DNA of 62,538 nucleotides, the filler included, from Deltaproteobacteria bacterium (GTDB lineage Bacteria > JAUYMQ01): assembly GCA_030698575.1 (NCBI GenBank). It is 11 parts of 11 records of this genome, joined end to end, with 100 filler letters (N's around TTAATTAATTAA, not from the genome) between each part and the next. Parts side by side here need not be neighbours in the genome. Positions count along the whole stretch, not along the records: positions 1 to 11,767 come from JAUYMQ010000091.1; 10 more parts are not named here. One strand, written 5' to 3'. A program made the position numbers and the translations under genes. Below are positions 1 through 11,767 of this stretch, in pieces. Positions within the stretch are counted from its first letter, which is position 1; every line of letters begins with the position of its first letter. The notes under the pieces were generated by a model. That model searched no databases. It was not told the DNA's origin and worked only from the letters and a program-made list of their open reading frames with translations.

Positions 1-342
1 CTCGATCTCACCGGACTGGACGAGGTCGAGCAGCTCCAGCACGCCGCCGGCGGCGAGGAGGGCGATCTCGTAGCTCCGGTCTCTTGCTTAAGTGTCGGGA
101 TCGTTCTTGTTGTTTTTCAGCGTCGCGGTCTGCTTCTCGCTATCGAGCAGCTGCTCGCCGTGGTTGAGCAGGATCTCCTCGGGGATGGCGGCGCGAGGGG
201 GGATCCTGCGAGTGCGGCCAAGGAGGCCGGTCGCTTCCAGGCCAGCGTGCACGGCCTCGAGCCGATCGGGATTCTCCGGATGCGCGTGGGGCGGCCTGTG
301 TTCGAGATAGCGCGGGTCGAGGACGACCCCGGTTCCGGCCAT
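1..342 (-). pseudogene. Histone deacetylase/acetoin-utilization-family protein, 5' part, with in-frame TAA at 88-90 (pseudogene or consensus error)
   Basis: ATG at 342 with GGGAGA RBS. Motifs HPENPDRL, EEILLNH and DPDT; after the TAA the same frame continues ARDRSYEIALLAAGGVLELLDLVQSGEIE, typical of HDAC-family proteins. Runs off the window start. Confidence 0.8.
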
Positions 343-439
343 GAAACCATCTCCCTGCGCGGTCGGCCGCGCCGCCGCCAACCGGGGTGACGCGAACCCG
401 CCTATCCTAGTCGATGAGCGGGCAAGGGGAAAGCGTCCG

Positions 440-469
440 TTGACACCCGCCTCCGCGCCTTCCTATCAT
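440..469 (+). promoter_or_regulatory. Putative sigma70 promoter
   Basis: TTGACA (440-445), 18-bp spacer, TATCAT (464-469), just upstream of the acyltransferase ORF. Confidence 0.6.
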
Positions 470-479
470 CCTTTGCCGG

Positions 480-1556
480 ATGAATCACGGGGGAACTGAA
501 TTGAGCAAGGATGAACGGACCATCGTCGCCGAGCGCGTTGCCGCCCTGGAGAGTCGTGTGAACGGCCTCATGGAGGCTCGCCGCGCCCGCGTAACCGGCG
601 GGAAGCGCGGGGCGCGATCCTCGAGCGCGGGCTCCGCCGAGATCGAGGCGACCCGTGAGCGGCTTGCGAAGGAACTGGCCGGGCTGGCCGCGCGCCTCGA
701 GAAATTCGAGCGGGCCGATGAGGAGCGCGGCCGCAAATCCAAGGACGGCAGCGGGAGCCTGTCGAGTTTCCGCGAGGTCGTCCGGCAGGCCAGGCGGCTC
801 GGCGACGCCGAGGAGATTGACGATTTCGGCCTCGACCGCGGCTTCTTCGAAACGGTCCGGCCGCTCGTCGATCTGCTCTACGATCGTTACTTCCGCGTCG
901 AAGCCGAAGGCGCGAAAGCGAACGTGCCCGCCGAGGGGCCCGCGATTCTCGTGGCGAACCGCGGCGGCCCGGTGGCTTACGACGCGCTGATGATCGCCGA
1001 GGCTGCCAGGCGGGCCCATCCCGGCCGGCGGATTCGCTTCCATGTCGATCCGCACCTTGGCTCCGCGCCCGGCATAGGACCGATCATGGTGCGCCTCGGC
1101 GGCGTCAAGGAGGCCGGGGACAATGCCGAGCGCCTCGTCGAGGAAGGGCAGCTGTTTCTCTTCTTCCCGGAGGGGTTCCGGGGGGCCGTGAAGACGCTCG
1201 GCGAGCGCTATCGGCTCGCCGAGTTCTCGACGGAGTTCGCCGAAGCCGCCGAGCGCCTTGGGGTTCCGGTAATTCCGGTCGCGCTCATCGGGTCGGAAGA
1301 GGCGCAGCCGGTCATCGGGGGTATCACGTTCCTCGCCCGTGCGCTTGGCTGGCCCGCCTTTCCCCTGGCCCCGCTCGGCGTGCTCCCTCTGCCGGTGAAG
1401 TTCAGGATTCGCTTCGGCAAGCCCCTCACACCTTCGGGGGCACGCGGGCGCGCCCTCAAGACCCGTGCGAGGGCCCTTCGACAACGGACGCGCGATTCGG
1501 TTCAGGCGAGTCTCCGAGACCTCCTGGCCAGCCGACGATCCGTCTTTCTCGGCTAG
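480..1556 (+). CDS. Lysophospholipid acyltransferase (PlsC fold, MGAT/DGAT2-like) with N-terminal coiled coil; catalytic His absent
   Basis: DDFGLD...YFRVE, ILVANRGGPVAYD (NH replaced by NR), FFPEG, GVPVIPVALIGSEE, PLPVKFRIRFGKP. Paralogous to the ORFs at 5110 and 6384. Start may be TTG at 501. Confidence 0.85.
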   Translation: MNHGGTELSKDERTIVAERVAALESRVNGLMEARRARVTGGKRGARSSSAGSAEIEATRERLAKELAGLAARLEKFERADEERGRKSKDGSGSLSSFREVVRQARRLGDAEEIDDFGLDRGFFETVRPLVDLLYDRYFRVEAEGAKANVPAEGPAILVANRGGPVAYDALMIAEAARRAHPGRRIRFHVDPHLGSAPGIGPIMVRLGGVKEAGDNAERLVEEGQLFLFFPEGFRGAVKTLGERYRLAEFSTEFAEAAERLGVPVIPVALIGSEEAQPVIGGITFLARALGWPAFPLAPLGVLPLPVKFRIRFGKPLTPSGARGRALKTRARALRQRTRDSVQASLRDLLASRRSVFLG

Positions 1557-1560
1557 GCCT

Positions 1561-2964
1561 TTGAACGATCCCGCGTCCTCAACTTTCCGCCGCTGCCTTC
1601 TCCTTTCAATTTTCGCCGTCCCGATTTATCTCGCGGCGCTTGGAGCGCCGGCGATCCACCGCCACCAGGAGGCACGGGTGGCCGAGGTGGCGCGTGAGAT
1701 GCGGGTTTCAGGCGATGCTCTCATTCCCCGCCTGAACGGCATGCTCCGGCTCAACAAGCCGCCGCTCGTCTACTGGGCCGCCCTGGGAGGGTACGGAATC
1801 TTCGGCGAAGTGAGCGAGCTTGCCGCCAGATTTCCGATGGCGCTCTCGGCGATCGCCTGCATCCTGCTGACCGCGGCTCTGGCCGCGCGCCTGTTCGGCC
1901 CGCGAGCCGGGCTCTTCGCCGGCGCCGTTCTTGCGACCACGCCGCTCTACGTCTCGCTCGGAAGGCGCGCTGAGACCGACGTGCCGATGACCCTCTTCAT
2001 CGTTCTGGCGATGTACGCCTTCGAGCGCGCGTTCCGCGAAAAACAGGCCGGCTGGCGATGGCTGTTCTTCGCGGCGATGGGCCTCTCCTTCATGTGCAAG
2101 GGCGTGCCCGGCGTGGTGGTCCCCCTGCTCGCGGCGATCCTCTACCTGTTGTGGGAAGGGCGCGCGCGTGAGCCGCTTCGTCTTTCCTTCCTGGGCGGTC
2201 TCCTCCTGACCGCGCTCATCATTGCGCCCTGGTACGCACTCGTCTGGGCGACTTTTCCCGACGCGGGGGAAGTCTTTCGGTTCGAGACCCTGCACCGCCT
2301 CGGCGCGGACGCGCCGCACGCCAATCCGTTTTATTTCTACTTCTACGTGACGCCGATCCAGGTCCTTCCCTGGAGCCTGGCGATCCCCCTCGTCTGGACG
2401 GCCCTGCGCGGCGACGAAAAAGCGCGCCGCGCCGCGCGGCTTCCGGCCGCATGGCTCGCGGGGGGGCTCGTGTTTCTGACGCTTCTCGAAACCAAGCAGC
2501 CGCACTATCTGGTCCCTCTTCTGCCCGCCATCGCCATTCTCATCGGCGCCGGCATCGACCGGGCTCTTGCCTCGGCGCGCTGGCCCTGGCTTACGGGCCG
2601 GCTTCTGGCTCGCTTCACGGCGGTGTTTTCTCTCGGCATCGTTCTTTTCGCCTTTTTCTTCGAGGCGCGGTTCGTCGAACGCGACTCCCCCCGGGGCGTC
2701 TGCGGCCGGGTGCTCGATGAGGTGGGCGAGCGGCCGCTCATCTACTACCGCTTCGACGATTCGGCTTGCACCTTCTATCTTAAGCGGACGGTTCACGTAG
2801 CCGCCGACGAGGCGCTTCTCATGAAGGCGCTTCAGCGCACGCCGGGCGCCCACGTGTTCACCCGCGAGGAGTACGCTGCGGGGCTGGAGCTCCCGAGCCA
2901 TCGGATCCTCTGGACGAGCGACGACTACAAGCGGCGGATGGTTCTTCTCGGTCCGCGCGGTTGA
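1561..2964 (+). CDS. ArnT/GT39-like (GT-C) integral membrane glycosyltransferase
   Basis: EARVAEVAREM...PRLNG...NKPPLVYW, MCKGVPG, KQPHYLVPLLP, many TM helices; probable TTG start at 1561. Confidence 0.85.
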   Translation: MNDPASSTFRRCLLLSIFAVPIYLAALGAPAIHRHQEARVAEVAREMRVSGDALIPRLNGMLRLNKPPLVYWAALGGYGIFGEVSELAARFPMALSAIACILLTAALAARLFGPRAGLFAGAVLATTPLYVSLGRRAETDVPMTLFIVLAMYAFERAFREKQAGWRWLFFAAMGLSFMCKGVPGVVVPLLAAILYLLWEGRAREPLRLSFLGGLLLTALIIAPWYALVWATFPDAGEVFRFETLHRLGADAPHANPFYFYFYVTPIQVLPWSLAIPLVWTALRGDEKARRAARLPAAWLAGGLVFLTLLETKQPHYLVPLLPAIAILIGAGIDRALASARWPWLTGRLLARFTAVFSLGIVLFAFFFEARFVERDSPRGVCGRVLDEVGERPLIYYRFDDSACTFYLKRTVHVAADEALLMKALQRTPGAHVFTREEYAAGLELPSHRILWTSDDYKRRMVLLGPRG

Positions 2965-3022
2965 GGGGCGAGGGCGCGGTGACACGACACCGCTCTTGCG
3001 GTCCGGCCGCGGCCTTCGCCGA

Positions 3023-3051
3023 TTGACACCCCGGGGCTTTTAAATTAATCT
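3023..3051 (+). promoter_or_regulatory. Putative sigma70 promoter of the SDR-parA-acyltransferase operon
   Basis: TTGACA (3023-3028), 17-bp spacer, TAATCT (3046-3051), in an AT-rich patch. Confidence 0.65.
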
Positions 3052-3282
3052 GCGACGTATCTAAAAGTTCAATGAATTTCAGAACCTAGGGCGGTTCCGG
3101 CGCATTCCGAAGGCGCCATCCGAGGGAGGCCGCCGGGCCGCGCCACGACGGAGCCGCGCGCGGAGCACCCGCAAGTCCGGTCACGACAGCTAGCCAGACA
3201 GTTTGCAGATACCCGGGTCGAGGCCCCGCGGGGCGGAGCATATCGCCCGGCGGCCCTGGTTCCCGATCTTGGAGCGTGTGCC

Positions 3283-4314
3283 ATGGAGAAGGAGAGCAGC
3301 AAGGGCGGGCGCGCGAAGCGGAGGCGCGGCGCTGAAGCCCGCGAGGGCGGCGCCCTGGCCCTGACGGGCGCCTCGGGATTCATCGGGTCGCGCATTCTCG
3401 GCCGGCTCGTCGAAAGCGCGGACGATCGCCCCATCCTCGTGATCGACAATCAGAAGCCGCCGGTCGAGCACCGGCGCATACGCTTCTTTCGGGTCGACTT
3501 CACTGAGCCGACCGCCGACGCGACGCTGGCCGCCATCCTGAAGAAGGAAGGGTGCGACACGTTCATCCACACTTCCTACCTGTCGAACCCGACTCACGAC
3601 CAGGCCTACGCGCATGAGCTCGAGGCAATCGGCACCATGCACGTGCTGCACGCCGCCAGCGAAGCCGGGATCCGAAAGCTGATCGTCGCAGGCACGACGA
3701 TGTCCTACGGCGCGCTTCCGTCCAATCCGAATTTCCTGACCGAGGAGCACCCCCTGCGGGCGAACAGTCGTGTCGCCTCGCTGCGCGATCGCGTCGAGGC
3801 CGAGCAGGAAGTCGCGCGCTTCTCGCGGAAGAACCCGGACACCATCGTCACGGTCCTCCGGTGCTGCTGGATCATGGGACCGACGGTGAGCGGCTTTGTC
3901 ACCACCTTTTTCAGCCGCTCCGTGGTGCCGACGCTCCTCGGATATGATCCGCTGCTCCAGTTCATTCACGAGGAGGACGCGGTCGATGCCTACGAGCGCG
4001 CGGTGATCCACGATTTCCGGGGGGCCTACAACATCGTGGGACGCGGCGTTCTGCCGCTCAGCACGCTGCTCAAGCTCGCAGGCAAGCCATCGATTCCCAT
4101 CCTGCACTTCGCGGCCTATCCCTTTGCCGAAGCGCTCTGGATGAGCCAGCTCAGCGAGGCGCCGGGACCCTACCTGGATTACCTCCGGTATCTCTGGGTG
4201 GCCGACGGGGACAAGGCGCGCATCGAGATGGGATTCGAGCCGAAGTACTCAACGAAAGAAGCCTGGATGAGTTTCGTGGGGGGCCGGAGGCTGCGCAAGT
4301 ATCAGAACCGCTGA
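3283..4314 (+). CDS. Extended SDR / NAD-dependent epimerase-dehydratase family protein (Rv0501-like)
   Basis: TGASGFIG Rossmann motif, LGYDPLLQFIHEEDAV, GAYNIVG; this family is typically found next to Rv0502-like acyltransferases. Confidence 0.85.
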   Translation: MEKESSKGGRAKRRRGAEAREGGALALTGASGFIGSRILGRLVESADDRPILVIDNQKPPVEHRRIRFFRVDFTEPTADATLAAILKKEGCDTFIHTSYLSNPTHDQAYAHELEAIGTMHVLHAASEAGIRKLIVAGTTMSYGALPSNPNFLTEEHPLRANSRVASLRDRVEAEQEVARFSRKNPDTIVTVLRCCWIMGPTVSGFVTTFFSRSVVPTLLGYDPLLQFIHEEDAVDAYERAVIHDFRGAYNIVGRGVLPLSTLLKLAGKPSIPILHFAAYPFAEALWMSQLSEAPGPYLDYLRYLWVADGDKARIEMGFEPKYSTKEAWMSFVGGRRLRKYQNR

Positions 4315-4354
4315 CGGCATTGGGGGGTGCCGTGGCTGCGGTTCCAGGGAGCCC

Positions 4355-5128
4355 ATGGTGCGCCGGATCGCCTTCATCAACGAGAAGGGCGGGAGCTGCA
4401 AGACCACGCTCGCCGTGAACCTTGGCGCGTTCTACGCCCACTACCGGCGCAAGCGCGTCCTGATCGTCGACATGGATCCCCAGGGACAGGTCGGCAAAGC
4501 GCTCGGCTTCGAGGTAAAAAGCCTCGACCAGACGATCCTCGATCTGCTCGAAGATCCGGATCGGCCCGTCCAGGAATTCATCCGTTCGTCCCGGGTGTCC
4601 AGCCTCGACATCATTCCGGCCAACAAGCGGCTGGCGGAGTACGCCTCGACGGCGGGCTCCCTTCCCGATCACCCGCACCGCCTGGCCCGCGCGCTGCGCC
4701 AGCTCGAGGGGTACGACTACCTGCTCTTCGATTCACCCCCGTCCCTGGGCGTGAGCATCCTCAACATCATGCTCGCCACCGAGGAGATCGTCATACCGGT
4801 ATCGCTCACCTACTTCGCGCTGGACGGCTGCGCGGAGATTCTCGACACAGTGGGACGGGTGCGGGAGCGCTACGGGAACGAGGCGCTGCGGGTGAGCCTG
4901 GTGGTGCCCGCCCTCTACCGGCGGACCCGGCTGGCCGATGCTATTCTCGAACGGCTCCGGGAGCACTTCCCCGACAATCTCTCGCAGACCGTCGTGGGCT
5001 ATGACGTGAAGGTGGACGAGGCGCAGAGTCACGGGCAGACTATCTGGGAGTACGCACCCACGAGCCGGGGCGCGGAGTTGTTCGCGCGCCTGGCGATGGA
5101 GCTGGAACGTTGGCCGGCGGCCCGCTAG
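4355..5128 (+). CDS. Orphan ParA/Soj-family ATPase
   Basis: NEKGGSCKTT deviant Walker A, VDMDPQG, FDSPPSLG, EAQSHGQTIWEY; no parB or parS nearby. Confidence 0.92.
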   Translation: MVRRIAFINEKGGSCKTTLAVNLGAFYAHYRRKRVLIVDMDPQGQVGKALGFEVKSLDQTILDLLEDPDRPVQEFIRSSRVSSLDIIPANKRLAEYASTAGSLPDHPHRLARALRQLEGYDYLLFDSPPSLGVSILNIMLATEEIVIPVSLTYFALDGCAEILDTVGRVRERYGNEALRVSLVVPALYRRTRLADAILERLREHFPDNLSQTVVGYDVKVDEAQSHGQTIWEYAPTSRGAELFARLAMELERWPAAR

Positions 5129-6363
5129 GAAACGATCCCCTCTCACGTTTGAGCACACCGGGCGAGCCCGCCCGGCGGGAGGCCACCGTGCGTCTGCTTC
5201 CCCGGCGCGAGTCCCCTCCCGGCGGCGAATCAGCCATGGGGAAGACGCCCGCGGAGGCGGGATCGGGTCGCGGCGGCGGCCCCGATCTGGAGGCCCTTGA
5301 ACGGCGCTTGGCCGAGATCGAGCGGCGACTCGACGATGAGCTGGCCGGACTGCGCCGCGGGGCGGTGCGGAGATCGAATCCGCCCGCCGAGCGCGAAGAT
5401 ATCGTCGGCGCCATCCGCGATTTCGACGATCGCCTGGTTGAGATAGCGAACCGGACCTCGCACCTGGCGAGAGGACAGCGCCGCGGGCTGTTCCGTGGCG
5501 CCCGGAACGTGGCCAAGCTGGCGGGCGAGCTGGTCACGCCGGACTACTACTCGCGGAAGCTCGCCGAGTTCGGCCTTCGAGATCGCTCGGTTCGGGTGGA
5601 CGAATTCGGGATGGATCCCGCCTACCGGGCGAGCATCCGCCCCTTCATGGAATTTCTCTTCAGGCGGTGGTGGCGGGTGCGCATCGAGGGAATCTCGAAC
5701 ATCCCCGAGCGAGGCGCCGCACTCCTTGTGGGCAATCATGCGGGCGTGATTCCCTACGACGCCGCCATGGTCTCTTTCGGCGTCGAGATGCGGCATCCTG
5801 CCAGGCGTCGCGTCCGGTTCCTCATAGAAGACTGGTTTTCGACCCTCCCCTTCGCCAGCCCGCTCATCGCGCGCGCGGGAGCGGTGCGAGCCAACCGTGA
5901 GAACGCCGAGCGGCTCCTCCGGACGGGACATCTTGTCGGCGCCTTTCCCGAAGGGACGAAGGGCTCGCTCAAGTACTACAAGGATCGCTACAAGGTTCAG
6001 CGCTTCGGACGGGGAGGCTCGGTGCGGCTGGCAATGCGGACGGGGGTGCCCATTATTCCCTTCGCGGTGGTGGGCTCCGAGGAGATCTATCCGGTGCTCG
6101 CGAAGGCCAATCTGCTTGCGCGCGCCGTCGGGCTCGGAGAGCTGCCGATCGCGGCGAACACGCTGCTGGGCCCGCTGGGCCTCATTCCGCTCCCCTCGAA
6201 GTGGATCATCCGCATCGGCAAGCCGATTGATGTGGCTCGCCGCGGCGCCCGGGGAGCCGAGAACGATATCCTGGTGAACAAGATTGCCAATGAACTGAGA
6301 GAGAACGTGCAGGAGATGGTCGACGACCTTCTCACCAGGCGAAAGAGCGCCTGGCGCGGTTAA
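5110..6363 (+). CDS. Lysophospholipid acyltransferase (MGAT/DGAT2-like) with N-terminal LGNDPL peptide and coiled coil
   Basis: TTG start overlaps the parA 3' end, with GGAG RBS at 5098-5101; GNHAGVIPYD, FPEG, RFGRGG, GSEE. Confidence 0.88.
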   Translation: MAGGPLGNDPLSRLSTPGEPARREATVRLLPRRESPPGGESAMGKTPAEAGSGRGGGPDLEALERRLAEIERRLDDELAGLRRGAVRRSNPPAEREDIVGAIRDFDDRLVEIANRTSHLARGQRRGLFRGARNVAKLAGELVTPDYYSRKLAEFGLRDRSVRVDEFGMDPAYRASIRPFMEFLFRRWWRVRIEGISNIPERGAALLVGNHAGVIPYDAAMVSFGVEMRHPARRRVRFLIEDWFSTLPFASPLIARAGAVRANRENAERLLRTGHLVGAFPEGTKGSLKYYKDRYKVQRFGRGGSVRLAMRTGVPIIPFAVVGSEEIYPVLAKANLLARAVGLGELPIAANTLLGPLGLIPLPSKWIIRIGKPIDVARRGARGAENDILVNKIANELRENVQEMVDDLLTRRKSAWRG

Positions 6364-6383
6364 CCTCGGGCAGGGACAAGGTT

Positions 6384-7613
6384 ATGGCCAAGTCGGTTCT
6401 GGGCTCCGATCCTCTGGCGCGCATGAAGGCGCGATCGCCGAAGCTCATCGATGAGGTGGCGGGGGAGCGCCCTGGAAATGAAGCGCCGGAAGCCGAGGGG
6501 CTGCCCGCGGAGATCTTCGAGCGCGCCGTCGACGATCGCATCGCGACCTTCGAGAGGCGCATCAAGGCCAAGCTCAACCGCTTCGATTCGGAGATCGAGG
6601 AGGAAATCGGCCAGGCGCGCAATCTCGATCCGACCCTCGAGCGCCGTCTCGGCGAAGCGCTCCATCGGATCGAAGGCCGCTTCCAGAAGCTCGGCTCGCT
6701 CGTCGGCGAGCTCGAGGAGGAAGAGCGCCAGGGGCTGCTGGAATCGATCATCGCCTTCGGCGACGCGTTCGAACGCGCCTTCCGGCTCGACACCTACCGC
6801 CACTACCTGAACAACTTCGGAATGCGCGACAGGAATTACGACGTCGACGAATTCGGCGTGGAGGTGGATGCGCACGCGTCGATCCAGCCCCTCGTGGAGT
6901 TCCTGTTCCACAAGTGGTGGCGCGTCGAGGTCGAAGGTATCGAGAACATCCCGGACGAGGGAGCCGCGCTGCTCGTGGCGAACCACGCGGGGGTGCTCCC
7001 CTATGACGGCGCGATGATCACTTACGCCGTGGAGCATCTGCATCCCGCGAGGCGGCGCGCGCGGTTCCTCGCCGAGGACTGGTCGGCCGAGATCCCATTC
7101 GCGACAAGCCTCGTCACCCGGCTGGGTGGGGTGCGCGGCAGCCGTGAGAACGCCGAGAGGATACTGCGCGCAGGCGAGCTGGTGACGGTATTCCCCGAGG
7201 GCGTGAAGGGGTCGGGGAAGTACTATCACGAGCGTTACCGGCTACAGCGGTTCGGGCGCGGCGGGTTCGTGCGGATGTGCCTCGAGACGGGCGCCGCCAT
7301 CATCCCCGTCGCCGTTCTGGGGGCAGAGGAGGCCCACCCCGTGCTCTACAAGGTGAACTGGCTCGCGAACCTACTTCGCGTTCCGTTCTTCCCCGTGAGC
7401 CCGACCTTCCCGTTGCTCGGGCCGCTGGGCCTGATCCCGCTCCCCGCGAAATGGACCATCGTATTCGGGGAGCCGATCACGCTCGAGAAGCACGGCCCGA
7501 CCGACGGGACAAACGATTTTCTGGTGAGCCAGCTGAAGGAGCGCGTCCGGAACGCCATCCAGCAGATGCTCAATGAGCGGCTCGCCGAGCGCCGGTCCAC
7601 CTGGCTCGGATGA
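6384..7613 (+). CDS. Lysophospholipid acyltransferase (MGAT/DGAT2-like) with N-terminal LGSDPL peptide and coiled coil
   Basis: ANHAGVLPYD, FPEG, RFGRGG, GAEE; acidic helical N-terminal region. Confidence 0.9.
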   Translation: MAKSVLGSDPLARMKARSPKLIDEVAGERPGNEAPEAEGLPAEIFERAVDDRIATFERRIKAKLNRFDSEIEEEIGQARNLDPTLERRLGEALHRIEGRFQKLGSLVGELEEEERQGLLESIIAFGDAFERAFRLDTYRHYLNNFGMRDRNYDVDEFGVEVDAHASIQPLVEFLFHKWWRVEVEGIENIPDEGAALLVANHAGVLPYDGAMITYAVEHLHPARRRARFLAEDWSAEIPFATSLVTRLGGVRGSRENAERILRAGELVTVFPEGVKGSGKYYHERYRLQRFGRGGFVRMCLETGAAIIPVAVLGAEEAHPVLYKVNWLANLLRVPFFPVSPTFPLLGPLGLIPLPAKWTIVFGEPITLEKHGPTDGTNDFLVSQLKERVRNAIQQMLNERLAERRSTWLG

Positions 7614-7743
7614 TCCCGCCGGCCGGTCTGCCAACCAGGAAGTGATACCTCTGGTTACACGATCTGGGCAAAAAACTTCCCATTTCGTTTGTGAAGAACT
7701 TGCACTGGCCGCGATTCTGTTGATTTGGCGGGCCACCCCGGCG

Positions 7744-7759
7744 TGGCCTGAAAATTGCA
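7744..7759 (+). promoter_or_regulatory. Putative sigma54 (-24/-12) promoter
   Basis: TGGCCTGAAAATTGCA with GG at 7745-7746 and GC at 7757-7758 (exact 12-bp spacing); AT-rich upstream region. Confidence 0.6.
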
Positions 7760-7871
7760 CTGTTTAGCTTGGCTTCGTCTGTCGTGAGGGGAAGTCGGCC
7801 ATCGAGAGGGGCCGTTTCACCGGCTGGTGGGTCCGGCCGCCAGGGCGCCGGGGGGCGATCAGGGAGCTTCC

Positions 7872-9545
7872 ATGTTGGATGCGTTTCAGATCCGGGTCCG
7901 TTTTCGGAAAGCCGGTCGTCTGCTGGTTGCCTCGGCGGGATTCATTTTCGCCGCCGCTCTCGTCACGCCCGCCCCGGCGGCGGCGGAGACCGAATTCCGC
8001 GCAATCGACGGGACGGGCAACAATCTGTCGAACTCCGCCTGGGGCTCCGCCGGCGACCAGCTGCTTCGGACGACCACGGTCGACTACGGTGACGGCGTAT
8101 GGACGCCGGCCGGCGCAGATAGGCCGAGCGCCCGCGAGATCAGCAACCTCGTCTGCGCCCAGGGCTCGCTCCTGCCCATCTCCGTTCCCGTGACGAGCTT
8201 CGTCTGGCAGTGGGGGCAGTTCCTCGATCACGACATCGACCTCACCGCGGGCGGCGCCCCGGCGGAACCCTTCGACATACCCGTGCCCCTGGGTGACCCC
8301 TACTTCGATCCCTTCGGGACCGGAACGCAGGTGATCGCGGTCGACCGCTCCGTCTACGATCCGGCTACGGGAACCGCCTCCGGCAACCCGCGGCAGCAGA
8401 TGAACCTGATCACGGCTTACATCGACGCGTCCAACGTCTACGGTTCCGATTCCGTTCGCGCCGCGGCGCTCAGAACGAACGACGGCACGGGGCGCCTGAA
8501 GACGAGCGCCGGTGATCTGCTCCCCTTCAACACCGGCGGTCTTCCCAACGCGGGCGGGACGAGCCCGAGCCTCTTCCTGGCCGGCGACGTGCGGGCGAAC
8601 GAGCAGGTGGGCCTCACGGCGCTGCACACGCTCTTCGTACGCGAGCACAACCGCGTCGCCGCGAGGATCCATCACCACGAGCCCGAGCTGTCTGACGACG
8701 AGATTTACGAACGGGCGCGGCGCATCGTGAGCGCCGAGATGCAGGTGATCACCTACAAGGAGTTCCTGCCGTACCTGCTGGGCCCCGGCGCGCTGGCCCC
8801 CTACACCGGCTACGATCCAGACGTCGATCCCGGGATCGGCAACATCTTCTCGACCGCTTCCTATCGCTTCGGCCACAGCATGCTTCCCGACGAGCTTCTC
8901 CGGCTCGACCAGAAGGGGGTGGACATCCCCCAGGGCAATCTGCCTCTCCGGAACGCCTTCTTCGCGCCCGGCGTGATCGTGAACGAAGGAGGGATCGATC
9001 CCCTTCTACGCGGGCTCGCCGCGCAGCGGCCACAGGAAGTCGACGCGATGCTCGTAGATGACATCCGGAACTTCCTCTTCGGGCCGCCCGGATCCGGCGG
9101 CTTCGACCTGGCCTCCCTCAATCTTCAGCGCGGCCGGGATCACGGGCTCCCGGGCTACAACCAGACCCGTGCCGACATGGGCCTGGCTCCGGCCGCCACC
9201 TTCGCGGACATCACTTCCGACCCGGCGCTCCAGGCGGCACTCCAGCAGGCCTACGGGACGGTGGATCAGGTGGAGGCCTGGGTGGGCGGGCTTTCCGAGG
9301 ATCACCTGCCCGGTGCGCTCGTCGGCGAGCTGGTCTTCACCGTGCTCAGGGAGCAGTTCGAAAGGCTGCGCGACGGGGATCGGTTCTGGTACGAGAATTC
9401 CTTCTCGAAGTCCGAGATCTCCCGGCTCGAGAAGACGCGGCTCTCGGACATCATCCGTCGCAACACCGGGATCGGGGGGGAGATCCAGAAGGACGTCTTC
9501 GTCCTGCGCGGCCAACATCTCCATCATCACGATCACGGCCACTGA
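7872..9545 (+). CDS. Secreted animal-type heme peroxidase (peroxidase-cyclooxygenase superfamily)
   Basis: Signal peptide; RAIDGTGNN, WGQFLDHDI, ITAYIDASNVYG, GDVRANE, REHN, RFGHS, QRGRDHG, LRDGDRFWYE; His-rich C-terminus. Confidence 0.93.
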   Translation: MLDAFQIRVRFRKAGRLLVASAGFIFAAALVTPAPAAAETEFRAIDGTGNNLSNSAWGSAGDQLLRTTTVDYGDGVWTPAGADRPSAREISNLVCAQGSLLPISVPVTSFVWQWGQFLDHDIDLTAGGAPAEPFDIPVPLGDPYFDPFGTGTQVIAVDRSVYDPATGTASGNPRQQMNLITAYIDASNVYGSDSVRAAALRTNDGTGRLKTSAGDLLPFNTGGLPNAGGTSPSLFLAGDVRANEQVGLTALHTLFVREHNRVAARIHHHEPELSDDEIYERARRIVSAEMQVITYKEFLPYLLGPGALAPYTGYDPDVDPGIGNIFSTASYRFGHSMLPDELLRLDQKGVDIPQGNLPLRNAFFAPGVIVNEGGIDPLLRGLAAQRPQEVDAMLVDDIRNFLFGPPGSGGFDLASLNLQRGRDHGLPGYNQTRADMGLAPAATFADITSDPALQAALQQAYGTVDQVEAWVGGLSEDHLPGALVGELVFTVLREQFERLRDGDRFWYENSFSKSEISRLEKTRLSDIIRRNTGIGGEIQKDVFVLRGQHLHHHDHGH

Positions 9546-9700
9546 GCGCCCTGCAACGTTTACATCCCGAATAACGCTTCCCGCCAGATGTCACTTTGAC
9601 GCGACAGGACTCAGGGCCTAGGATGGCTCCGGGTGGAGTTCCTGGCCGTTGGCCGCCCGATGATCGTCCGAGGTCCGCACCGTTTTAGGAGGGGGGAGAC

Positions 9701-10372
9701 ATGAATCCGCGAACACCGATCAGGAACGCAATCTGGGCCGTCACGATCCTGCTTGCCTTCGGAACGCTCGGAAGCAACGGGAGCTGCGCCGACATGGCGG
9801 GGCCGAATTACGGCCCCGGGAACCAGGGGGGCTACGGGCAGCCGGGCTCGGGAGGGGGCCAGACCTACAACCAGCCCACCTTCAACAATTACCGGGTCGA
9901 CTGGTGCCTCAACTGGGGGGCAAACTGCGGGGGACCCGCCGCGACGGAGTTTTGCCATCGTATGGGCTACTCGCAAGCCACGGCGTGGACCCAGGCCCAG
10001 AACATCGGGAGCTTCTCGCCCACCCTGTTGCTGGGCGACGGCGCCGTGTGCAACCAGCCGGGCTGCGACGGATTCGACAGCATCACCTGCACCAGTGGCG
10101 GAGCGCCTCCGGGCCAGGGGGGCGGCCAGCAGCAGGGTACCTTCTTCGAGGAGCCCGGCACCGACCGGCCGGGAATGAACTACCGGAACGTTGTTCTCAA
10201 CAACCCCGACCCCAAGAACTGCAAGAACCTCTGCCGGAAGGACGGGGCCGTCTGCCGTGCGTTCACCTATGTGAATCCCGGGGTGCAGGGGCCCCAGGCG
10301 CGCTGCTATCTGAAGAACGGGGTGCCGGCCCCGGTGGCCGACAACTGCTGCCACTCGGGCGTCAAAAAGTGA
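9701..10372 (+). CDS. Secreted Cys-rich protein with C-terminal PAN/Apple domain
   Basis: AGGAGG RBS, signal peptide, DWC...CG...A..FC...GY domain, DRPGMNY...C...C...CRAFTY...CYLK...CCHSG. Confidence 0.8.
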   Translation: MNPRTPIRNAIWAVTILLAFGTLGSNGSCADMAGPNYGPGNQGGYGQPGSGGGQTYNQPTFNNYRVDWCLNWGANCGGPAATEFCHRMGYSQATAWTQAQNIGSFSPTLLLGDGAVCNQPGCDGFDSITCTSGGAPPGQGGGQQQGTFFEEPGTDRPGMNYRNVVLNNPDPKNCKNLCRKDGAVCRAFTYVNPGVQGPQARCYLKNGVPAPVADNCCHSGVKK

Positions 10373-10373
10373 G

Positions 10374-10934
10374 TCAGGCGTTCGACCGGCGCCCGGAGGT
10401 AAAACTTTCCGCCAATTCCGGCGGCGCCGGTTCGAGATCAACGCCGAGTGTTTCCAGGAAGCGCGCGATCAGCATGTAGTAACCGATGGTGATCACGAGT
10501 TCCGCGATCTCCTGGGATGAGAACCGACCGAGCGCCTCGGCGAAGATCGGATCGGAGACCCGGACCTGGCGGACGCACTCGTCTGTGAAGCGGACGACGA
10601 GGCCCGCCGCATCATCGAGCCCGCCCGGCGCCTCCTCGCGAATCGCCGCAATCTCGTCATCGGTCACGCCGACCGCCCTTCCGATCGCCTCGTGCTGTGT
10701 CCACTCGTAGTCCGCGCGGGAGAGCACGGCCACGCGGAGGATGGCAATCTCGCGAAGGCGGGCGTCGAGCCTCTGCCGTCCAAGCACCGATGCGCCGAGC
10801 CGCAAGAGGTCGGGCATGCAGGTAGGCGCCTGGAGCATCATGCGCATCACGTTGAGCTTGACCGGGAGCTTCTCGAACATCGCTCGGGCCTTCTCCGGCG
10901 CTTCCTGTGGATCGGGATAGGGTATCCTGGCCAA
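10374..10934 (-). CDS. Carboxymuconolactone decarboxylase (AhpD-like) family protein
   Basis: TTG start with AAGGAGG; LREIAILRVA...YEWTQH...ELVITIGYY. Confidence 0.88.
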   Translation of the reverse strand: MARIPYPDPQEAPEKARAMFEKLPVKLNVMRMMLQAPTCMPDLLRLGASVLGRQRLDARLREIAILRVAVLSRADYEWTQHEAIGRAVGVTDDEIAAIREEAPGGLDDAAGLVVRFTDECVRQVRVSDPIFAEALGRFSSQEIAELVITIGYYMLIARFLETLGVDLEPAPPELAESFTSGRRSNA

Positions 10935-10988
10935 AGCTGTCCTCCTTGAGTTGTGGAATTTCAGGGATTTCCGGGAAGGAGAGCACGT

Positions 10989-11767
10989 TTGAAACGCCTC
11001 TGCTTTCTTATCATGGCTTTCCTCTCAATGTTATCCCTCACGGGCTGCGGGGAGCGCCCCGCCCCCCGGCCCAACGTCATTCTCATCACCGTCGACACCC
11101 TGCGCGCCGATCGGCTCGGCTGCTACGGCAATTCCCTCGGCCTCACGCCGAGCATCGACGCGCTGGCGCGCCGGAGCGCGCGCTTCGCTGCCGCATACGC
11201 ATCAGCCCCCTCCACCTTTCCCTCCGTTGTTTCGCTGTTGACGGGAAACCATCCCGAGAGCAGTGGCGCCGTGAACAACTACGGCTTCCTGCCTCCGGAC
11301 GTCCCGACAATCGCCGGGCATCTTCGCGGGATGGGGTGGCGGACGGCGGCCGTCGTGAGCAACTACGTCCTCTCGGAGCGCGCGGGACTCGGCGCGGGGT
11401 TCGACCGCTACGACGCGACCTTTCCGCAGACCGAGGCGGTGTGGAAGAATCCGGAGCGCATCGCAGCCGAGACGCGATCCGCGGCGCTGGCGCTGGTCGA
11501 CTCGTTCGACCGGGGCAGTTCGCCGCTCTTCCTGTGGGTCCACTTCCAGGATCCGCACGGGCCCTACGTGCCGCCGGACGATCTCGCGGACCGCTACCTC
11601 GAAGCTGAGCGCGCCGCGCCCGACGGACAGGTTCTGTTGCCCCTTTCGAATAACGTCCGCGGGCTAGGGGGGATCCCGACCTATCAGGTGGTCGCGGGCC
11701 GCAGGCACGCCGCGGAGTACCGCGCCGCGTACGACGGCGAGGTGCGCTACGCGGACGCCGAGATCGG
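10989..11767 (+). CDS. Sulfatase-family lipoprotein (3' truncated by spacer)
   Basis: Lipobox LTGC, NVILITVDTLRAD, TPSID, TFPSVVSLLTG, HFQDPHGPY, YDGEVRYAD. Confidence 0.88.

Follow-up and report, generated by a model that had tools for sequence, protein, structure and literature searches.

A ParA-type ATPase co-inherited with an N-terminal acyltransferase peptide: a candidate positioning system for lipid storage bodies

The stretch of DNA analysed here (the window; 62,538 nt) belongs to a deltaproteobacterial genome (assembly GCA_030698575.1, hereafter G000; 91.6% complete) and consists of separate contigs (C415 and C417–C426) split by runs of N, with positions 1–11767 as the only context of the locus in question. 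That locus encodes a short-chain dehydrogenase/reductase (SDR), a ParA-type ATPase, and two acyltransferases (ATs), AT1 and AT2, which share a short N-terminal peptide. We report that the peptide is co-inherited with this ParA at the level of the genome, whether the genes are linked or unlinked. The signal is real, its two parts are conserved, and it suggests a ParA cargo system not described before. As the ParA subfamily is co-inherited with tagged lipid enzymes and with storage-granule genes, it probably spaces fat or other storage bodies. On balance, we favour a cargo-positioning system in which the enzyme is the adaptor and a lipid storage body the cargo. A physical link between ParA and the peptide is likely, and the identity of the cargo is the weaker step.

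The four genes lie on the plus strand in the order SDR (3283..4314), ParA (4355..5128), AT1 (5110..6363), and AT2 (6384..7613), with intergenic gaps of 40, −19, and 20 nt. Open reading frames and gaps agree with the first-pass annotation of this DNA, which had described the set as free of parB and parS; indeed, no parB is present on the contig, and a scan of the whole genome for a parS consensus that we take to be correct (at most two mismatches) gave seven parS-like sites, two adjoining the chromosomal parAB on contig C345 and none on the locus contig. AT1 starts at a TTG codon, with GGAG at 5098–5101, and this start overlaps the final 19 nt of parA, as had also been annotated. The start is supported because orthologues begin at the same −18 position (ATG in L016 and TTG in L017); these orthologue starts rule out an internal ATG at 5236.

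The LG[N/S]DPL peptide is present at residues 4–14 of both enzymes, as first described (GPLGNDPLSRL in AT1 and SVLGSDPLARM in AT2). We regard LGNDPL of AT1 (5110..5151, +; partly encoded within the 3′ end of parA) and VLGSDPL of AT2 (6384..6425, +) as candidate ParA-docking tags. By chance, LG.DP[LF] would be expected about 5e-5 times per 10 positions, given 29 occurrences in 5.75 million six-frame residues. The N-termini had been considered otherwise dissimilar; AT1 and AT2 are 44% identical over their full length, helical region included, and are grouped in the tree. Since they are paralogues, the peptide is a retained ancestral feature rather than two independent occurrences, kept in both copies after duplication while the linker diverged.

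A comparison of peptide and ParA across genomes, which had been suggested as a check, turned out favourably. ParA is carried by 75 of 151 Myxococcota genomes; the 76 negative genomes, searched again with a profile hidden Markov model (HMM), yielded canonical-level matches only. An HMM of the acyltransferase catalytic domain that excludes the peptide (E ≤ 1e-85) matched 67 of 73 ParA-positive genomes (two already examined were omitted) and 23 of the 76 ParA-negative ones. Among the 68 ParA-positive rows, LG.[DN]P[LF] lies upstream in frame in 63 and in another frame in two (apparent frameshifts), two rows run off the end of a contig, and one is a second paralogue; every one of the 65 ParA-positive Myxococcota genomes that could be scored has the peptide, as do five of five further cases. 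The consensus of 67 in-frame rows is K/R-x-V-L-G-[N/R]-D-P-F-x-R (N in 51 rows, R in 13, Asp in 65, and the final R in 59), usually five residues from the Met. In Myxococcus, the SDR–acyltransferase pair lies megabases from ParA, yet the acyltransferase begins MAKGVLGNDPF. The peptide is as common where ParA is not adjacent, a pattern that the first-pass annotation had listed as counting against a ParA partnership, but the genomes concerned carry ParA elsewhere, so the link is one of genomes rather than operons.

By tree, the 23 ParA-negative rows divide into eight paralogues and 15 orthologues, of which 11 (three lineages) lack the peptide, three keep it (G052, G169, and G183), and one is half deleted (G155). 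In G155, approximately 800 bp with parA are gone from between the phasin and phaR genes, in DNA otherwise 96% identical to that of a ParA-positive relative, and 51 nt are missing in frame from the acyltransferase gene immediately after GNDPF, taking out the conserved QRGAA; this paired loss was seen once. In the G142 lineage, the gene order ArsA–ArsA–phasin–PhaR–Zn-ribbon persists without parA and without the peptide. Across the 11 peptide-less genomes and G234 (introduced below), ArsA is present in 12 of 12 and a PhaR-like gene in 11 of 12, and SDR adjoins the acyltransferases in peptide-less ParA-negative genomes. Because SDR, ArsA, and PhaR-like genes are all kept where the peptide is lost, the peptide follows ParA, and each of the three was rejected as its partner.

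The association extends to a second phylum, where ParA occurs in four and the acyltransferase in five of 251 genomes; the four that share both have the peptide, and the fifth (G234, ParA-negative) has three acyltransferases, none with it. These figures are based on 9–10 candidates scored per genome, with misses possible, and the four positives include one identical in sequence to L053 and two that are seeds or their kin. The 17 genomes of G121's class, all already among the sampled genomes, contained no acyltransferase orthologue. A sub-branch of the ParA subfamily (L302 and L306) is operonic with a different acyltransferase subfamily that normally is peptide-less, and the acyltransferases encoded there carry LG[S/R]DPF. 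In several lineages, the acyltransferase start either overlaps parA or directly adjoins it.

The ParA of the locus (Pfam AAA_31/CbiA) represents a distinct subfamily. Its motifs are a Walker A NEKGGSCKTT with K11 and K16, D39 and D41, D126, a basic K219, and a near-invariant K91; the C-terminus is short and variable. It is an extra paralogue because G000 has its own chromosomal parAB, with the two parS-like sites beside it, and, on contig C308, a separate gene that we take to be PomZ-like (also L236 and L239; approximately 170 bits on the subfamily HMM). That HMM, made from 16 members, scores members at 362 bits or more and 24 other ParAs at 216 bits or less, and approximately 11 clusters exceed 275 bits among 1.84 billion representatives. 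The best 80 of 283 GTDB relatives are 47–84% identical to the locus ParA, and their record titles mostly name Myxococcales or Deltaproteobacteria, M. xanthus included; source annotations of subfamily proteins merely read ‘ParA family protein’ or similar. In a FastTree phylogeny, canonical ParAs all fall outside the subfamily, although support at its base is low (0.14).

Residues were compared between 81 subfamily members and 21 canonical ParAs (M. xanthus numbering, with the register taken from 8RAY through L238). The catalytic residues are kept (K31 in 80/81; K36, D58, D60, and D145 in 81/81), with H or Q at the equivalent of N64. The equivalent of R209, presumably a DNA-binding residue, is K/R in 53 of 81, with an invariant Arg adjacent (as judged from sequence). 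The equivalent of R238, which has a role in non-specific DNA binding (PMC12462528, excerpts), is K/R in 73 of 81. By contrast, the pocket described as binding R13 of ParB (Y81, E82, D110, and E117; same excerpts) is largely replaced: Y81 is kept in 8/81 and E117 in 9/81, versus 19/21 for each in canonical ParAs, D110 is outside the five commonest residues, and the equivalent of E115 is also mostly changed. Position 109 (K91 in the locus ParA) is K/R in all 81 members. Of the hydrophobic pocket, L150-G151-L152 is mostly kept, whereas L155, L187, and L192 mostly are not. As the catalytic residues persist while the ParB pocket does not, we infer a working ATPase with a changed partner site.

A further feature of the subfamily is that the P-loop Gly before the catalytic Lys (window positions 4391–4405) is Cys in 68 of 81 members, followed by an invariant Cys in DGCAE; redox or kinetic tuning is possible. 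G000 also encodes a second subfamily ParA (C457:3092-3958, −), which is 47% identical, orphan, located upstream of cytochrome c genes, and joined to the L302/L306 sub-branch (support 0.9), as well as a fourth acyltransferase with an N-terminal LGDDPF (C590:4388-5683, −). The two are possibly a second cognate pair.

AT1 comprises the peptide, a disordered linker, long helices, and a PlsC-fold acyltransferase domain (Pfam Acyltransferase and DAGAT). For AT2, the AlphaFold2 model has residues 1–41 disordered (pLDDT <50), long low-confidence helices at 42–145, and a confident catalytic domain of PlsC/GPAT fold. An acidic coiled coil had been described in both enzymes; this applies to AT2 (32 D/E versus 25 K/R) but not to AT1, which is net basic (25 versus 31). 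Fold searches with the AT2 helical region returned only generic coiled coils (Z approximately 5–6), an ESM Atlas search with residues 1–150 returned no usable match, and no phasin Pfam matched AT1 or AT2 at E ≤ 0.01.

The catalytic domain (PF01553, with the PlsC/GPAT or LPLAT fold) is that of lysophospholipid-type acyltransferases such as PlsC, DIESL, and DGAT2/MGAT, with which it shares the His-Asp dyad (AT1, H210-x6-D217; AT2, invariant H201/D208) and, for Pfam DAGAT, a partial match above the cut-off in both AT1 and AT2 (25–31 bits versus 22). TIGR00530 (PlsC) was not reached (29–31 bits versus a cut-off of 103). The enzymes differ from PlsC, with its HX4D motif (PMC10593935, excerpts), and from human DIESL/TMEM68, with its dyad H130/D136 (PMC10482677, excerpts), in the H-x6-D spacing and in the additional N-terminal peptide, linker, and coil. 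Because DIESL makes triacylglycerol (TAG) and inclusion bodies in Escherichia coli (same excerpts), demonstrating that the fold is capable of it, a neutral-lipid product is plausible for AT1 and AT2. The best structural match of AT2 is PlsC (5KYM; Z 16.7, rmsd 3.8, 202 residues aligned), and plant GPAT and human GPAT1 also match. We further presume kinship to mycobacterial Rv0501/Rv0502.

The N-termini of other acyltransferases vary. After the peptide, myxobacterial linkers (L107, L108, and others) are rich in Ala, Pro, and Lys (24, 15, and 12% of the first 80 residues), a composition that we take to resemble histone-type nucleoid-binding or PhaF-type tails. Many peptide-less homologues (P0021–P0119) have another N-terminal motif instead, [N/K]-V/I-[V/H]-[P/Y]-L/I (e.g. 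KVVPLR or NIHYLK), which suggests that the tag can be swapped to suit another partner.

The case for a storage body comes from gene neighbourhoods. Within 6 kb of 80 ParA loci (the best 80 of 283, many of them close kin), HMMs of our own seeded from L024 detected PhaR-like (PHB_acc_N) genes in 66, phasin-like genes in 56, ArsA2 in 56, the Zn-ribbon gene in 50, an acyltransferase in 11, and SDR in seven; at least one of phasin, PhaR, acyltransferase, or ArsA2 is near ParA in 76 of 80, and a phasin-like gene is directly upstream of parA in most loci. A separate metagenome sample had at least one of these four at 9/9 subfamily loci and at 0/71 other ParA loci. At the window locus, the contig end (11510..11767, +) overlaps C610:1-258 (258 nt, 98%), placing phasin (PF05597, above cut-off), PhaR-like, and three ArsA genes from approximately 4.8 kb after AT2, beyond the window. 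In the sister genome G002, a single contig (L260) has the order AT0-PMT-SDR-ParA-AT1-AT2-CMD-phasin-PhaR-ArsA. These phasin-like, PhaR-like, and ArsA neighbours give the storage-body idea independent support.

Two neighbours deserve mention in their own right. Tandem ArsA-like ATPases (L024:3441-5509; G000:C610:2344-5749) have a fixed place next to the phasin-like and PhaR-like genes throughout Myxococcota, whether or not ParA is present, the third ArsA of G000 carrying an HSP20 domain; the pair is possibly a granule-protein targeting module. The syntenic Zn-ribbon/DUF3426 protein (L024:7650-10208 and homologues) contains a disordered linker in which DPF is repeated up to 16 times, independently of ParA, and was rejected as a partner: the repeats are abundant in ParA-negative lineages too (up to 16) and are absent from G000.

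The mechanism that we propose would operate as follows. A ParA dimer with ATP would bind the nucleoid non-specifically, as its retained catalytic and DNA-binding residues suggest. The acyltransferase would be its own adaptor: a flexible tether would present the (K/R)xVLG[N/R/S]DP[F/L]xR peptide, and the coiled region would multimerize the enzyme. By analogy with ParB and McdB, and in keeping with co-inheritance, the peptide may dock at the ParA dimer interface and trigger ATP hydrolysis, its Asp perhaps pairing with K91 where the ParB Arg pairs with an acidic pocket. The catalytic domain would sit on a membrane or, as the gene neighbours hint, on the monolayer around a neutral-lipid body coated with phasin. 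Bodies loaded with the enzyme would then remove ParA from their surroundings, repel one another, and move with the ParA gradient, and lipid bodies might thereby be spaced and partitioned along the nucleoid, as McdAB does for carboxysomes. The developmental TAG bodies of M. xanthus number 2–3 per cell and tend, variably, towards the poles and centre (PMC3950526, PMC4048283, and PMC12288465, excerpts); we count this tendency towards both poles and mid-cell as support for lipid-body positioning.

Several observations weigh against this proposal. Three ParA-negative genomes (G183, G052, and G169) have an intact peptide; in G183, on a 9.47-Mb contig, other DNA stands in the place of parA between phasin and phaR, and phasin and ArsA are kept. 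Conversely, ParA-positive G197 has two peptide-less acyltransferases, one next to ParA, and the peptide was not found anywhere in its assembly. The adjacent acyltransferase lacks the peptide in three of 11 cis operons; in two of these genomes, G195 and G196, an unlinked paralogue carries it instead. Independent contrasts come from no more than about 4–5 lineages, and the ParA-negative genomes are smaller metagenome-assembled genomes with completeness not reported. The motif is missing from the first 60 residues in 104 of the 120 AT2 homologues closest to the enzyme (fragments among them, and few from genomes of known ParA status), and myxobacterial linkers often contain DPF triplets. As to cargo, the closest structural match of AT2 is a phospholipid enzyme, and a phasin-like protein could be the real adaptor. 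G000 has no PhaC_N match, only a partial match to TIGR01836 (E 6e-13), and no clear PHA synthase or WS/DGAT, which leaves the storage polymer undefined. Among five genomes tested, a PhaC-III-like gene below the family cut-off is present in three (G041, G045, and G195), and WS/DGAT in three.

These points bear on three other explanations. The best of them accepts the ParA–peptide interaction and has ParA carry SDR/acyltransferase foci on the inner membrane as its cargo, or act as an ATP- and nucleoid-dependent switch that sequesters or releases the enzyme, with no body being moved. It fits the co-occurrence data equally well, it agrees with a fold typical of membrane phospholipid acyltransferases, and it is at ease with the missing PhaC and WS/DGAT of G000; we nevertheless consider it unlikely, as it leaves the phasin-like and PhaR-like synteny (76/80 and 9/9 loci, versus 0/71 controls) unexplained. 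Somewhat less credible still is that ParA positions polyhydroxyalkanoate (PHA)-like or lipid granules via a phasin-like or PhaR-like adaptor, with the peptide being secondary or binding something else. The neighbour counts near parA (phasin-like 56/80 and PhaR-like 66/80, as opposed to 11/80 for the acyltransferase), the PhaC-III-like genes, and G197, with ParA and no peptide, speak for such an adaptor, but phasin-like, PhaR-like, and ArsA genes stay in order without parA (L292), and it is the peptide that is lost there. Finally, that peptide and ParA merely share a history of inheritance and loss, the ParA cargo being unrelated, is improbable: the contrasts are few and four genomes break the pattern (three with the peptide only, one with ParA only), but a shared history alone accounts poorly for the paired parA and peptide deletion in G155, the peptide on a second acyltransferase subfamily where it is operonic with ParA, and the acyltransferase starts that overlap or abut parA.

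The favoured system, with the enzyme as adaptor, has parallels among known ones. McdA/McdB of Synechococcus elongatus and Halothiobacillus neapolitanus space carboxysomes on the nucleoid (PMC13052382, excerpts) and combine a ParA-type ATPase without parS with a cargo-bound partner whose disordered N-terminus is the activating region, a role that the acyltransferase N-terminus, likewise disordered, may fill here. Unlike in McdAB, the candidate peptide is fused to an enzyme of 410–660 aa rather than borne by a separate small adaptor, the neighbours are storage-granule genes, and the locus ParA resembles chromosomal Soj more than McdA (185 bits to 8RAY versus 57 to McdA). No small McdB and no carboxysome or other microcompartment genes are among the annotated neighbours on the locus contig, C610, or the sister contig; genome-wide microcompartment content was not searched. 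The chromosomal ParABS reference, M. xanthus ParA (PDB 8RAY) with ParB KRALGRGLSALI, includes the closest solved relatives and shares the catalytic residues, the largely kept L150/G151/L152 loop, and a partner peptide that opens K/R-x-hydrophobic-L-G. The resemblance to ParB LGRGL proposed in the first pass accordingly holds for K..LG, but the remainder of the peptide (N/R-D-P-F where ParB has R-G-L-S) and the ParA pocket differ, and no parB or parS is adjacent. A general N-terminal-peptide model for ParA/MinD partners has been put forward (bioRxiv 2022.06.09.495121, excerpts). PomXYZ of M. xanthus has a ParA paralogue with a non-DNA cargo in the same organisms, but the locus ParA is not a PomZ orthologue. 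As proposed here, the system would link a storage inclusion to the nucleoid as PhaM, PhaF, and PhaH do; these are described as passive DNA binders without ParA homology, and the excerpted 2025 review leaves open whether energy is used in granule positioning (PMC13052382).

We found no paper on this ParA subfamily, on this peptide, or on ParA positioning lipid or PHA inclusions, with most subscription papers and supplements outside the coverage of our search. For the question of energy-driven granule positioning, the locus points to a specific ATPase and partner peptide and to a genetically tractable host (M. xanthus). If correct, the proposal would extend the ParA/MinD family to a new class of cargo and to a design in which an enzyme serves as the adaptor. 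It would also suggest which acyltransferase acts at myxobacterial lipid bodies and yield a tag of approximately 12 residues, orthogonal to ParB, with which cargo could be placed in cells. More tentatively, with doubt slightly outweighing belief, it may be the first ATP-driven positioning of bacterial carbon-storage inclusions, in which a dedicated ParA recognizes a charge-swapped ParB-like tag, one enzyme both builds and tows the body, and the tag is movable between paralogues, with a second ParA–enzyme pair in some genomes.

The remaining features of the locus contig are minor. The SDR (Pfam Epimerase) is an atypical extended member with a Rossmann motif, lacks YxxxK in all 33 rows examined, and accompanies the acyltransferase as a conserved partner whether or not ParA is present. 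The sigma70 site annotated at 3023 stands in part: the −35 element is perfect (TTGACA, 3023–3028) and followed by a 17-nt spacer, but the −10 element TAATCT is weak, matching three of six positions, and a consensus scan did not call the site, leaving a possible promoter at 3023..3051 (+). An Rfam scan of the contig gave no matches. In one RNA run (share 0.08), a few short near-identical pieces fall on SDR, AT1, and AT2; these are assembled contigs and no measure of expression. A third, divergent acyltransferase paralogue, AT0 (480..1556, +; assigned by Pfam and tree), has a coiled N-terminus without the peptide. Between AT2 and the CMD gene lie an animal-type haem peroxidase with a His-rich C-terminus (7827–9545) and a PAN-domain protein (9701–10372), both of which are missing from the sister genome G002 contig.

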